64,000 bases of DNA from an uncultured Chloroflexia bacterium (GCA_963797095.1 CAWCNY010000003.1:864001-928000), one strand, 5' to 3'; positions 27,628 through 33,940 are shown, counted from the stretch's first letter. Numbers and translations are program-made. Notes: a model not told the origin generated them from the letters alone.

Positions 27628-27645
27628 TTTTTGTCGCGACAAAAA
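27628..27645. promoter_or_regulatory. Candidate parS (copy 1) TTTTTGTCGCGACAAAAA
   Basis: Perfect 18-bp palindrome 30 bp downstream of parB; identical copies at 33923 and 49492. Confidence 0.7.
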
Positions 27646-27675
27646 AATGCGCGACCTCCACGTGTAAAATGGGGG

Positions 27676-28812
27676 TCACCGCGCGCCCGGAACGTCGCCG
27701 CCGGGGTTCTCGATCTCTCTCTCCAACCCCAGCATAATAGCCAGCCTCCGGACCATGATCGTGATGGTGGCGAGGTCCAGCTTCTCTTCCATCGATAGCT
27801 CGGTGGTGCTGTCGATGCTGTCGGTGTAGTTCTGCAACAGGGCAGCGATGCGGGCCAACTTGCTCCTGCGCGCGCGCTGCTGGAAGCGCACCTCGACCCA
27901 GTCGCGCTTCGCTTCCTCCCTGCTGGATGTCTGCGTGGGCCTGTCGCGCTCGACCGGTATCTCTACGCCATCCACAAGCACAGTCTCGACGGGGGCCGCG
28001 CCTTTCCCCTCTCCCACCTCAGGCTCGCTGAGGGAGGTTGGCACAGGGGGCGCGCTTTCCTCCTGCGTGGCCTGCTCTGCCGCCCCGGCAACCGCCTTGC
28101 GCTCCTCCCGGATCTCTTTCACATAGGCGAGGATGTCGTCGGTGGTGATAGCGCCTCTCAGCAGGGAATCTATTATCATGGCGCGGTCCTGCTCGGATTC
28201 GACCCGCACCAGGTTGGCGACCGCCCGCAGGCTGTCGGGCTTCTGCTCGACCAGCGCCTGAATGTCGGGCGGGGCCTTGGCTACCCTCACCCTGTTGTAG
28301 ACATACCCAAGCTTCTTGCCCACCTCTTTGGCGATCTGCTCAAGCGTATAGCCCATCTCCTCCTGCATCAGCACGTAGATCTTGCCCTCTTCCAGGGGCG
28401 TGAGGTCCTCGCGCTGGATGTTCTCGGTGATGGCAAGCATCGCCATCTCCTCGTCGCTAAGCTCGCGCACGATCACCGGCAGCGAGGCGATCCCGACCAG
28501 CCGCGAGGCGTCCCTGCGCCTGTGCCCCGCCGTAAGCTGGTAGTGCCCGCGCTGCTCAGGGTGGGGCCGCGCCAGCAGCACGCCCTGGAAGCCCTGCCCC
28601 CTGATTACCGAGGCCAGTTCCTCAAGCGCCTCCGCGTTCACAGCAGCGCGGGGCTGGTAGGGGTTATCGAGCAGCCGCTCGATGGGGAGCGCGGTCGCCT
28701 GGCTGGCATCGGGCTGCCCACCGCCAAGGCTTGTCGTGAAGAGCCTGCTCATGTCCTTGCCAGGCGCATCGAGGTCCAATTCCACCGGTTTGAGATTTCG
28801 CTTGCGGGTCAT
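27676..28812 (-). CDS. parB: ParB/Spo0J-family CTPase partition protein
   Basis: 'NPYQPR', 'AGHRR', 'ENIQREDL.PLEE', HTH 'TLEQIAKEVGKK'; GGAGG RBS before ATG 28812. Confidence 0.93.
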   Translation of the reverse strand: MTRKRNLKPVELDLDAPGKDMSRLFTTSLGGGQPDASQATALPIERLLDNPYQPRAAVNAEALEELASVIRGQGFQGVLLARPHPEQRGHYQLTAGHRRRDASRLVGIASLPVIVRELSDEEMAMLAITENIQREDLTPLEEGKIYVLMQEEMGYTLEQIAKEVGKKLGYVYNRVRVAKAPPDIQALVEQKPDSLRAVANLVRVESEQDRAMIIDSLLRGAITTDDILAYVKEIREERKAVAGAAEQATQEESAPPVPTSLSEPEVGEGKGAAPVETVLVDGVEIPVERDRPTQTSSREEAKRDWVEVRFQQRARRSKLARIAALLQNYTDSIDSTTELSMEEKLDLATITIMVRRLAIMLGLEREIENPGGDVPGAR

Positions 28813-28843
28813 CTTTGCTCCATCCTCCAACCCCATACTCGCA

Positions 28844-28897
28844 ACTCGTCACTCGTCACTCGTCACTCGTCACTCGTCACTCGTCACTCGTCACTCG
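28844..28897. repeat. Heptamer tandem repeat (ACTCGTC) x7.7
   Basis: Perfect copies filling the gap upstream of parB and overlapping the stop codon of the preceding gene. Confidence 0.95.
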
Positions 28898-29816
28898 CCC
28901 CCGGCAGCAGCGACTGATACCACTCTTGCAGCCAGGACATAGCATCCGCGAACCGTTGCGCCGGAAGCTGCTTGTACGTAACGATCCCGTAGCGCTGGTA
29001 GAGGGCGGTGAAAACGCGCTGGTAGGGATTGCTCTCCTTCTGGTCGCGGCGCGCCATCTCGCCCGCGATGGCTTTCACCGCGAGGCTGATCTCGGCGGCC
29101 TGCTCAGGGGTGATCGCGCTCTTTCCGGCGGGCGCGGTGCGCTCTTCGAGGCGGTTGACGCGCTCAAGTATCTGCCCCACTACCGTGGCCGCCCTGTTCA
29201 TGCGAACGGTAAGTTGCTCAACCTCGGCATTGGTAAGCTGCTGTTGGCGTTCGAGGGCCATCTGCTCCTCGGCCAGTCGTACCAGCGCCAACCCCAATTC
29301 CCTGACGTGGGCCAGGGTGCCGATGTTCGGCTGAGCTAGGGCCTGGTTTGCGGTCGCCAGGGCCGTCAAGCCTGAGGCACCAGGCTGCCCATCGCCCCCA
29401 AATTCGAGCACGAACGCCTCGTACACCTTGCGCACCACCCACCGCTTGTAAGCGAGCAGTTTGTCTCGCAACTCAGCTTTGACTTTGTTTACCGTCACCC
29501 CCGACAGCCAGTAGGGCACAGTTTCGAGGCGCAGGAATTGCATGGTCTGCGTGCCGCCCCCATCCGTCTCTACCGCTATCTCGTGCAGGTCTTCCTGCAT
29601 GGCATCGTCGCGCTTGATGCGGCGCACCTGGGCCGCGCGATCCAGGCCCAGGCTCTCGCACAGGGCGCGCACGGGGAGGTAGATCGTGCCATCTTCAACG
29701 CGGGTTGCGAGCAATCGATCGCCAAGCACTTCGACCTGCCGTTGGTCCCTGACCACCAGCATGGCCGCCCCAAGCTGCTCTTGCCGGGCTTGCACTTCCT
29801 GTATGCCGTCTGCCAT
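28884..29816 (-). CDS. Phage antirepressor-like protein (P22 Ant N-terminal-like domain, coiled coil, ORF6C-like domain)
   Basis: 'IYLPVRALCESLGLD.AAQ.RRIKRD', 'WL.GV..NKVK.ELR.KL..Y'; C-terminal 'YQRVF.ALY.RYGI.TYKQLP..RF.DA..WL'. Confidence 0.8.
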   Translation of the reverse strand: MADGIQEVQARQEQLGAAMLVVRDQRQVEVLGDRLLATRVEDGTIYLPVRALCESLGLDRAAQVRRIKRDDAMQEDLHEIAVETDGGGTQTMQFLRLETVPYWLSGVTVNKVKAELRDKLLAYKRWVVRKVYEAFVLEFGGDGQPGASGLTALATANQALAQPNIGTLAHVRELGLALVRLAEEQMALERQQQLTNAEVEQLTVRMNRAATVVGQILERVNRLEERTAPAGKSAITPEQAAEISLAVKAIAGEMARRDQKESNPYQRVFTALYQRYGIVTYKQLPAQRFADAMSWLQEWYQSLLPGASDE

Positions 29817-29875
29817 TAGCTTCTCTCCTGAGAGGGTATCGTGTGGGCGATGGGGGTGCCATAATGGCACCCCCT

Positions 29876-32873: not shown

Positions 32874-32963
32874 GAGCCTACATTGTGCAGGTGCTCCTCC
32901 CACCAAGAGGGCCACCACTACAGAACCTTCAAGACCTGACTGTTACCAGCAGTCGGGTTTTTT
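32874..32963 (+). ncRNA. Candidate counter-transcribed RNA (ctRNA, ~90 nt)
   Basis: Promoter above; terminator GACCTGACTGT-loop-GCAGTCGGGTT+TTTT (32933-32963), whose G-U pairs form only on the + strand. Confidence 0.68.
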
Positions 32964-33113
32964 GTTGGTTCCGCGTCTGCGGTTGTAAAAGGGGAACGGG
33001 GCTATCGCGTCTCCCATTCCTGTAGATTTGCTAAGTCATTGTCTCTCCATGTTGGCTGTTGGCCGCGCAACCTGTTTGCCGAAAAAAAAGTACACGAAAA
33101 ACTCCCATGCCTA

Positions 33114-33143
33114 TTGACAGGGAGCCTGTGACCATGCTATATT
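33114..33143 (+). promoter_or_regulatory. Second antisense promoter in the rep leader region
   Basis: TTGACA(33114-19)-N18-TATATT(33138-43), TG extension, upstream A-tracts. Confidence 0.6.
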
Positions 33144-33485
33144 GAGGTTGCGCAATCAATATACGGCTACAGTGCCCCTGCAAGGGCCCTAGTGGCGGAA
33201 CCGGAAGCCTCTTAGACTGCAATCTTCGAGGTTTCACTATTTAAGCCGCCCCTTTGTGGGTGCGTGAGGCGCGTTTTCTGCCTCCATCAAGTCTCGTTTG
33301 CTCTCGGTATATCTCCCTCTACCTCCGGCTTCGTGGTACGCACTTGCCGGGCGGTGCCTCTAGTTGCTGCTCAGGTCCGGCTGTTGCCATGCCTTTCTGC
33401 GGGTAGGCCTTCGGGACCTTGTCTTGCCAAACTGCAATTTGACACGACATATCCTTTCGTACAGATCCCCGATTGAGGACGGCAT

Positions 33486-33719
33486 TTAGCCATCAGTGCC
33501 GGTAGCCTGCTGCTCCGGCTCCTGGGGTTGTCCCAGCTTCTCTAGCTGCTCCAGGCGTTCGACTATCGCGTCGTAGTGCTCGGCGTCGAGTACGACGAAC
33601 CTCTGCCTTCCCTTGACCACCAGCACGGGACGGCCTTTGGAAGCCTGTTCCAACTGCGGACCGGGGTTCATTCGGAAGCTCTTGTAATCAACTACGTCTC
33701 TCAACTGTACCTGCGCCAT
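33486..33719 (-). CDS. Orphan Phd/YefM-fold small protein
   Basis: GGAGG RBS; 'V..KSFR.NP...LEQA..GRPVLV.K.....VVLDAE.Y..IVE.LE'; no cognate toxin downstream. Confidence 0.65.
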   Translation of the reverse strand: MAQVQLRDVVDYKSFRMNPGPQLEQASKGRPVLVVKGRQRFVVLDAEHYDAIVERLEQLEKLGQPQEPEQQATGTDG

Positions 33720-33922
33720 AGCCGACCTCCGTATGCAGCGAGTATTACCGGGCGGGTTGTTGATCCTATTATCGCACCAGCTACGTAGATATCTCCAACT
33801 TTTGCACGCGTAGAATCTCCAACCTGACCGGATGATAGCGGATGTACAGTAAGCCAGGCAAGGGGTTTTTGCACATCCTGGGTCCTTTGCCGCCGGATGA
33901 GTTGTGCCTGGAGGGGCCGGGA

Positions 33923-33940
33923 TTTTTGTCGCGACAAAAA
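33923..33940. promoter_or_regulatory. Candidate parS (copy 2)
   Basis: TTTTTGTCGCGACAAAAA, intergenic. Confidence 0.7.

Follow-up and report, generated by a model that had tools for sequence, protein, structure and literature searches.

A plasmid-type replication and partition cassette with a candidate origin inside its initiator gene on a large, possibly chromid-like contig of an uncultured Chloroflexia bacterium

The stretch of DNA analysed here, hereafter the window, is comprised of 64,000 nucleotides from an uncultured Chloroflexia bacterium (GCA_963797095.1 CAWCNY010000003.1:864001-928000) and corresponds to G000:C3:864001-928000, that is, to part of contig C3 (1,147,721 bp) of an assembly, G000, of 6.02 Mb in 8 contigs. 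Between positions 27628 and 33940 it carries on the minus strand a set of genes in the order phd-rep-parA-ant-parB, encoding a Phd-like protein, the initiator Rep, a ParA with a helix-turn-helix (HTH) domain, an antirepressor-like protein and a ParB. We interpret this set as a complete plasmid-type (theta) replication and partition cassette, which on balance is probably the origin of a large low-copy and presumably chromid-like replicon that includes C3. Judged by comparison with related loci, the cassette is real and well conserved, and it may be responsible for the upkeep of large additional chromosomes in a group of soil bacteria that has received little study. A preliminary description of the window had proposed such a module on the basis of the five minus-strand genes, two identical 18-bp palindromes bracketing them, periodic motifs in the rep-like gene, antisense promoters in its leader and a tandem DnaD-like initiator, set between flanks of sugar-transport and surface cargo without housekeeping or phage structural genes. 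All of these features were recovered, the genes by Pfam, TIGR and PHROG matches, and the combination it envisaged of an origin internal to the initiator gene with an antisense RNA, ParAB and parS is supported in silico.

The initiator gene rep (31154..32818, minus strand; HTH_36 at 37 bits) encodes a protein of 554 amino acids (aa), in which a winged helix of about 115 residues is duplicated in tandem and followed by a linker of about 180 residues and a confidently predicted four-helix C-terminal domain. The first winged helix (approximately residues 6-133; 32420..32803, minus strand) is the one matched by HTH_36 and was modelled with a predicted local distance difference test (pLDDT) score of 76-95; by fold it is closest to the N-terminal domain of DnaD, which in two structures (2v79 and 2vn2) takes the top Foldseek rows for the Rep winged helix, with template-modelling (TM) scores of 0.67-0.69 by target length. 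The second winged helix (approximately residues 170-289; 31952..32311, minus strand) was recognized by alignment as a duplicate of the first, and at its position Rep relatives pass the DnaD_N model (PF21984) with 28-53 bits (cut-off 27). The linker is variable in sequence and predicted to be disordered (pLDDT <50). The C-terminal domain (residues 471-554; 31157..31408, minus strand; pLDDT 88.5) is the proposed docking site for host replication proteins. Compared with the DnaD-domain protein 2i5u it gave a Z of 6.8 and a root-mean-square deviation of 2.2 A over 69 aligned positions, a score that is tied with unrelated generic helical folds, so that the likeness of this domain to DnaD is only suggestive. 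It had no match in the PDB by sequence, Foldseek returned nothing better than E 5, and the ESM Atlas yielded unnamed clusters and, as a lead only, a 0.88-score link to L_lactis_RepB_C.

Relatives of Rep indicate how these parts are combined elsewhere. The C-domain also occurs without the rest of Rep, attached to other N-terminal regions, in many genomes from several other families of the class (protein length 260-670 aa), and this solitary occurrence behind varied N-termini suggests that it is a shuffled 'initiator C-domain' module. A subset of the relatives, 667-757 aa in length (P0032, P0096 and others), has DnaA_N (PF11638; 50 bits for P0032) as an additional domain at the C-terminus, and it is through this domain that DnaA contacts the helicase. 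When PLSDB was searched, relatives were found for the single winged helix of Rep only (25-33% identity), and 0 of the 56 matching records covered 80% of Rep; one single-domain relative is the only annotated gene of a 2.3-kb plasmid, and another is the only non-toxin-antitoxin gene of a 5.7-kb plasmid. The window Rep gave no match to Rep_3 (PF01051).

The DNA encoding the Rep linker is proposed as the candidate replication origin, based on the repeats that it holds. Seven direct repeats of 24 bp (core GTGACA-N5-GTATA; 31565..31732, minus strand) form an iteron array of 168 bp, the proposed Rep-binding part of the origin, which encodes an 8-residue peptide repeat. In a comparison of 17 rep genes (the window and 16 loci), 24 bp was the strongest period within the range of 15-40 bp in all 17, at the same relative place, with a period match of 0.55-0.66 versus at most 0.47 for the runner-up. 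The repeat sequences diverge among the rep family (for example GGGGTAGCA..AGTTA; TATGAA.CAGAGCAGA; GGGGGGTCCACACTGCACAG), with the motif of the window common to its two closest orthologues, and the peptide repeat is wholly different among relatives while the 24-bp period is constant. Of the nine repeat positions that are best conserved, four fall on the third base of a codon, and the first and second positions of the codons concerned vary; this third-position conservation, together with the varying amino acids, points to a constraint on the DNA and not on the protein. The strict iteron motif forms clusters nowhere else in the genome.

On the 3' side of the iterons lies a purine-rich stretch with a GC content of 0.41, compared to 0.60 for the gene (31451..31504, minus strand), where unwinding is proposed to take place. 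In 16 of the 17 genes, the 50 nt of rep with the lowest GC are located just 3' of the repeats, with a purine-rich coding strand, and in 14 of the 17 the low-GC stretch is terminated by a 10-bp palindrome, GATTCGAATC (e.g. L044:4269-4286). The L026 rep gene has TGACTCGAGTCA in its place, a symmetric change, and the palindrome may be a site for a host factor; as (T)GATTCGAATC(A) it encodes a DDSN motif in the protein. According to the proposed mechanism, Rep would bind the iterons within its own gene and open the neighbouring purine-rich stretch of lower GC, and its C-domain would recruit the host helicase or primase, as in pSK41-type RepA_N initiators and lambda O.

The repeat also bears on whether the Rep-like protein might be an ordinary transcription factor, with an 8-residue repeat selected as protein and with ParAB serving a non-replicon purpose. 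The source annotations are generic HTH names ('AraC-like', 'helix-turn-helix domain-containing') and no curated NCBIfam model matches Rep, as would suit such a protein, but we consider this explanation very improbable given that conservation falls on third codon positions while amino acids vary, that the peptide repeat changes completely among relatives under a fixed 24-bp period, that the linker is predicted to be disordered, that some relatives carry DnaA_N, and that rep is tightly linked to parAB and to the antisense RNA described below.

The rep leader of 667 nt displays two promoter matches on the plus strand (32839-32867 and 33114-33143), each agreeing with the consensus at 11 of 12 positions. 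The first (32839..32867, plus strand; TTGACA, 17 nt, and TACAAT with an upstream TG) precedes a predicted antisense RNA of approximately 94 nt (32874..32967, plus strand), composed of a hairpin with a conserved GCCAAG-type loop motif, followed by a plus-strand terminator of 14 pairs (32931-32961) and a U tail. A diverged second copy of the element (33096..33251, plus strand) includes the promoter at 33114-33143. Two blocks of approximately 150-175 nt in the leader are nearly invariant with respect to the two closest orthologues, whose Rep proteins are 57-58% identical to that of the window. Antisense elements were found 1-169 nt upstream of 24 of the 42 distinct rep genes having enough upstream sequence, five of these genes carrying a second copy, and were undetected by single-sequence nhmmer upstream of the other 18, mostly from sister-family genomes and including L024 and L043 (both from G032).

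In 29 aligned copies, the antisense -35 TTGACA and the extended -10 TGnTACAAT, set apart by a 17-nt spacer, are the invariant columns. The terminator helix, read on the antisense strand, has 92.8% of its cells paired versus at most 60% with the partner slid, and 7 of its 12 pairs show compensatory changes altering both sides, a result reached by 0 of 500 shuffles. U-G pairs are frequent (21/29 and 17/29 rows) and would be C-A mismatches on the sense strand, so that these pairs fit the antisense strand only. This helix alone was recovered by RNAalifold from the alignment of the sense-strand leaders; the second hairpin, with the GCCAAG-type loop, is suggested by single-sequence folds, and since the alignment register is ambiguous there, covariation is not claimed for it. 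The predicted RNA folds at -34.1 kcal/mol (z -2.9) and has no family in Rfam, in which the only rows (E 0.28 and 0.85) were located elsewhere. Transcribed from its near-consensus promoter, this RNA of about 94 nt would limit the synthesis of Rep.

The partition genes have a type Ia-like layout. The parA gene (29876..30976, minus strand; 366 aa) encodes an N-terminal HTH of the excisionase/MerR type (HTH_17, residues 19-67) followed by an AAA_31 domain (residues 79-252, 159.8 bits), and scores 94 bits against partition_RepA, short of the 348-bit cut-off. The product of parB (27676..28836, minus strand; 386 aa) matches ParB_N (73.4 bits), HTH_ParB (46.7 bits) and TIGR00180 (126 bits), and contains a GHRRRDA motif which we take to occupy the place of the ParB arginine-rich box. 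A Walker-type ParA with an N-terminal HTH is thus associated with a ParB having both ParB_N and HTH domains, similar to type Ia-like ParABS systems.

Both sides of the cassette display the same palindrome, TTTTTGTCGCGACAAAAA, of which the window contains three copies and of which 0 of 100 shuffles gave any. The left candidate parS site (27628..27645) is located 31 bp past the parB stop codon, the right one (33923..33940) about 200 bp upstream of the Phd-like gene, and the third (49492..49509) between convergent gene ends; the two bracketing sites are identical over 22 nt. Exact copies of the parS 16-mer number six in the 6.0 Mb, and five of these are on C3 (at 632, 804, 892, 898 and 913 kb; binomial P 0.0013); the candidate copies are spread across approximately 280 kb of this contig. 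The 12-mer core is found 13 times genome-wide versus at most 3 times for shuffled-half palindromes, with unconserved flanks. In relatives, palindromes flank or abut parAB and vary by locus group (TTGTCGCGACAA, TTGTCATGACAA, TTTTCGCGAAAA, TGTATATACA). The site of the window is present on both sides of parAB in L031 and upstream of the Phd-like gene, at the same place, in L025; L028, L035, L036 and G121:C1 possess TTGTTGTCATGACAACAA, G121:C1 with three copies at most 6 kb from rep; L037 has TTTGTTTTCGCGAAAACAAA on both sides of parAB, and L034 and L044 have the TGTATATACA core. A clear parS candidate was thus found in 8 of the 17 parAB-bearing related loci. Because they lie beside parAB in relatives and differ between ParB groups, the palindromes are read as parS, and in placement and divergence they behave as the cognate centromere next to parAB. 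HTH-ParA and ParB would partition the replicon via these 18-bp sites, which flank or lie near the cassette.

The two remaining genes are less constant. The antirepressor-like gene located between parA and parB (28884..29870, minus strand; 328 aa) matches P22_AR_N (77.8 bits), ORF6C (weakly) and the anti-repressor family phrog_524. The preliminary description had counted it as an extra gene of the cassette, a claim that did not hold up: as no more than 3 of the 20 related loci have the gene and the two closest orthologous loci lack it, it is no fixed part and, by this comparison, is a variable accessory gene. In the latter two loci (G014:C44 and G015:C57), the space from parA to parB, of 2.7 kb and 6.8 kb, is instead filled by other genes, including surface-protein genes, so the gap between parA and parB accepts cargo. 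At the head of the operon, the orphan Phd-fold gene (33486..33719, minus strand; 77 aa) matches PhdYeFM with 24.1 bits, under the Pfam cut-off of 29.8, and TIGR01552 with 25.5 bits, above the cut-off of 20.8. No toxin gene is present beside it. It heads the cassette in 5 of 20 loci and in G121:C10, and its product may add transcriptional repression.

The P22_AR_N domain of the antirepressor-like gene, the matches of ParA and ParB to phage ParA/ParB PHROGs and the weak matches of Rep to PHROG families of the 'replication initiation O-like' kind (E between 6e-6 and 3e-8) could be taken to mean that the cassette serves to maintain a plasmid-prophage or another phage-derived element. This is hardly probable in view of the surroundings. 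A Pfam scan of all 48 open reading frames (ORFs) of the window found no integrase, phage structural, lysis or conjugation genes among them, and neither ribosomal nor other core housekeeping genes. The flanks encode sugar and peptide ATP-binding cassette (ABC) transporters, glycosidases, LacI regulators, SLH and adhesin surface proteins, one IS66 transposase, Uma2 and a Phd/VapC pair. Other module-bearing contigs also hold transporters and surface proteins, a tblastn search of Rep against 50,697 phage records was empty, and the antirepressor-like gene is confined to the three loci mentioned above.

The conservation of the gene set in relatives, on which the preliminary description had made its proposal depend, was evident for its core: Rep, ParA and ParB occur together in 16 of 20 fetched loci (17 with one whole contig read), in varying gene order, while parAB is missing at three loci (including L043) and at the window genome's own second rep (C3:70 kb). 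Full-length Rep was found in 19 of 25 genomes of the window's family and in 7 of 9 genomes of one sister family; elsewhere in the class only single domains are present, and among 400 other genomes of the phylum 9 had a single winged-helix match. Genomes G021, G022, G032, G153 and G462 are included in these genome tallies, and the claims on iterons, RNA and parS rest on other genomes. Several diverged cassettes can be present per genome, as in G004, where rep is present on five contigs and is accompanied by parAB on four of these.

As to the molecule served by the cassette, dnaA is located on a different contig, C2 (768-770 kb). The skew switch whose absence was to speak against the preliminary proposal is present: the cumulative GC skew of C3 is V-shaped with its vertex at 880-890 kb, and its minimum (883,324) is located 12.2 kb from the iterons. 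Similarly, on G121:C1 (365 kb) and G121:C10 (481 kb) the distance between rep and the global cumulative skew minimum is 16.9 kb and 9.9 kb, respectively, such that on 3 of 3 large contigs with a parAB-bearing module read whole the minimum lies 10-17 kb from rep; by rough arithmetic, the three coincidences have a joint probability of about 1e-4 under a uniform null. C3, which represents 19% of the genome, has the best match for 2 of 76 housekeeping markers derived from E. coli (murG and a weak recF), carries 2 of 71 tRNA genes and no 16S gene, and has a GC content of 0.584 versus 0.576-0.585 for the other contigs. It thus combines, like a chromid, plasmid-type replication and partition genes, a chromosome-like composition and some core genes. 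The best reading, supported but unproven, is that the cassette is the origin of a chromid-like secondary replicon, firing on the large low-copy molecule that carries it, which would probably include C3.

A number of observations weigh against this reading. Within the window genome, the GC skew is noisy (-0.22 to +0.19 per 50 kb), and neither dnaA nor dnaN coincides with a switch. The genes for chromosomal replication and partition are dispersed. The sole Soj/Spo0J parAB operon of the genome is on C3 (191-193 kb, adjoining dnaK/dnaJ), as are its sole dnaK/dnaJ and murG; dnaN lies at C2:84262-85488, followed by two canonical parS sites and at 683 kb from dnaA on the same contig. DnaA-box clusters are weak, with three boxes near dnaA and three near dnaN, and do not settle the place of oriC; the canonical parS and DnaA-box motifs were used here in their generally known form. 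A second, orphan rep at C3:70 kb lacks parAB and has no skew minimum in its vicinity, the closest being at 114 kb. The beginning of C3 falls in a multi-copy repeat that is also present on other contigs, and no terminal end overlap was found on the 8 contigs of G000 (including C3), on 7 contigs of relatives or on G121:C1. In relatives, G121:C1 bears canonical parAB, a 16S gene and murG in addition to the module, the skew minima of G121:C1 and G121:C10 are shallow, and there is no gene-order synteny of the flanks with the closest orthologous loci, G014:C44 and G015:C57.

Other adverse points concern the parts of the cassette. The window Rep itself is below the DnaD_N threshold passed by its relatives, the PDB matches of its winged helices are weak (Foldseek E 0.01-0.17), and a profile search against the PDB by sequence gave a single weak match, 2vn2 (E 0.052), which aligns at the second winged helix (profile positions 192-308). 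In the window rep, the lowest-GC 50 nt are placed 5' of the iterons and not 3', and the GATTCGAATC palindrome is broken or degenerate in the 31451-31504 region. For 9 of the 17 parAB-bearing loci no palindrome next to parAB stood out clearly, and the same holds for the surroundings of the G121:C10 module; the sequencing runs listed for the window comprise two soil DNA runs (shares 0.20 and 0.11) and no RNA run.

Several of these points, namely the chromosomal genes on C3 (Soj/Spo0J parAB, dnaK/dnaJ, murG), the same pairing together with 16S on G121:C1, the shared repeat at the start of C3, the orphan second rep, the lack of flank synteny and the degenerate palindrome of the AT region, as well as an IS66 copy and a toxin-antitoxin pair adjoining the cassette, could be explained if a plasmid replicon had (co-)integrated in the main chromosome and were now silent or retained for partition or regulation only, C3 then being a chromosome piece. 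We consider this unlikely, as all elements are intact (the ORFs, seven iterons, antisense promoter and terminator, and three perfect parS copies), the composition matches that of the host, neither an integrase nor an attachment-site-like boundary is present within the 64 kb, the skew minimum is found at the module on 3/3 large contigs, and parS copies extend across about 280 kb of C3.

An extension of the chromid-like interpretation, which we put forward tentatively and regard as possible though somewhat doubtful, is that the lineage keeps multipartite genomes, with several chromid-like replicons (0.1 to >1 Mb, unit-copy) each run by a paralogous cassette comprised of an origin-containing initiator gene, antisense RNA and ParAB/parS, and with iterons, RNA and parS diversified for coexistence. 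If true, this would represent an independent counterpart of the repABC radiation of the Alphaproteobacteria and would supply the missing initiator for chromid-like replicons of the Chloroflexota.

Each design element of the cassette already has a described counterpart. In plasmid pSK41, according to a review (PMC5703833), the N-terminal winged helix and the helical C-domain of its Rep are both DnaD-like, the Rep boxes are central within the rep gene, the protein part encoded by the origin is a dispensable linker, and an antisense RNAI of approximately 83 nt is counter-transcribed against the rep leader. As far as that description goes, the cassette resembles pSK41 and RepA_N in silico by its DnaD-N-like winged helix, intragenic repeats encoding a linker and leader antisense RNA; its helical C-domain may be a fourth such feature, the Z of 6.8 with 2i5u being tied with unrelated helical proteins. 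Family membership by sequence fails: the window Rep and four relatives gave no match to RepA_N (PF06970) at E up to 1. Unlike pSK41, the cassette has a tandem winged helix, seven 24-bp repeats, a linker of about 180 residues, and an HTH-ParA and ParB with palindromic parS, and it is found in a high-GC Chloroflexia host on contigs of 0.36-1.15 Mb. The chimeric staphylococcal initiator of pPR9, according to the same review (PMC5703833), joins a pfam13730 (HTH_36) N-domain to a separate C-domain. The window Rep matches HTH_36 as well, this domain family alone being in common with pPR9, which is known here by description.

The origin of phage lambda is comprised of iterons and an AT-rich stretch inside the O gene, in the part coding for an inter-domain linker, and the weak 'O-like' PHROG matches of Rep recall this protein; unlike lambda O, the cassette is without phage context or a match in the phage collection, and has antisense RNA control and linked ParABS. 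Cassettes of the repABC type serve megaplasmids and chromids. Their origin is located inside the initiator gene (PMC3155836). Each such cassette joins initiator, ParA, ParB, parS and a counter-transcribed RNA. The cassette described here is similar in joining these same components and in the presence of several diverged cassettes per genome (G004). It differs in that the window Rep has no RP-C match (one relative reached 23.9 bits, under the 24.4 cut-off), in a gene order that begins with rep and changes from locus to locus, in the position of the antisense RNA upstream of rep and not between repB and repC, and in missing the RepA and RepB equivalogs TIGR03453 and TIGR03454 (94.2 versus 348 and 68.1 versus 201.5 bits). 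With counterparts known for every design element (pSK41/RepA_N, pPR9, lambda O and repABC), the 'new type' of module announced in the preliminary description is too strong a term; the cassette itself stands, its novelty as a type does not.

Within the phylum, the chromid-like replicons of Ktedonobacteria are large, transport-rich and often carry 16S, with a V-shaped skew and parA near the putative origin; the 2026 paper describing them reports 'no canonical Rep-family initiators' and no parB detected (PMC13289182). In comparison with the replicons as described there, the cassette possesses both Rep and parB, in a different class of the same phylum. As no recognisable Rep or parB is reported for those replicons, a Chloroflexota initiator of this type would fill this stated gap, though from another class. 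In the parts of the literature that were accessible, no description was found of the replication of Chloroflexota plasmids or chromids at the level of initiator, origin or control. The cassette provides a concrete testable set, consisting of a named protein, a 168-bp iteron array, an RNA of about 94 nt and an 18-bp candidate centromere. It could be used to type replicons in metagenome bins of Chloroflexia, to improve the binning of secondary replicons and to build a first shuttle-vector backbone in a phylum having few genetic tools. The design of an origin inside the initiator gene plus an antisense RNA hereby appears far outside the Bacillota plasmids and lambdoid phages.

Several further features were found in and around the cassette. 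The IS66 transposase gene (24105-25559) has a 99.8% identical copy at C1:529,850-531,301. The neighbouring Phd/YefM-VapC toxin-antitoxin pair (26819..27494, plus strand), a possible stabilising module, has a second copy at C3:434 kb with 100% identity for VapC and 96% for the Phd antitoxin. On the other side of the cassette, positions 34019-38131 encode a surface protein of 1370 aa that contains a pAdhesive_15 domain and an extended repeat region rich in Thr and Pro, and the strongest local GC skew of the window (+0.2) comes from this gene.

An array of the heptad ACTCGTC (28837-28906), located in the gap between the antirepressor-like gene and parB, was considered as a centromere and rejected, since 447 such period-7 arrays are present genome-wide. 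These arrays (at least 4 copies) occur on all 8 contigs, versus 67 arrays of period 6 and 8 of period 8, and their commonest unit, ACGAGTG or its complement (84 arrays), is the same as that of the array at 28837-28906. Further heptad arrays in the window are located at 21720-21793, 47625-47655 and 62761-62875, and they are also frequent in the intergenic DNA of the relatives' loci; heptad arrays of this kind resemble the STRR repeats of cyanobacteria. On C2, approximately 25 tRNA genes are grouped within 11 kb (G000:C2:1272514-1283690), near the cumulative GC-skew minimum of that contig at 1,259,137.

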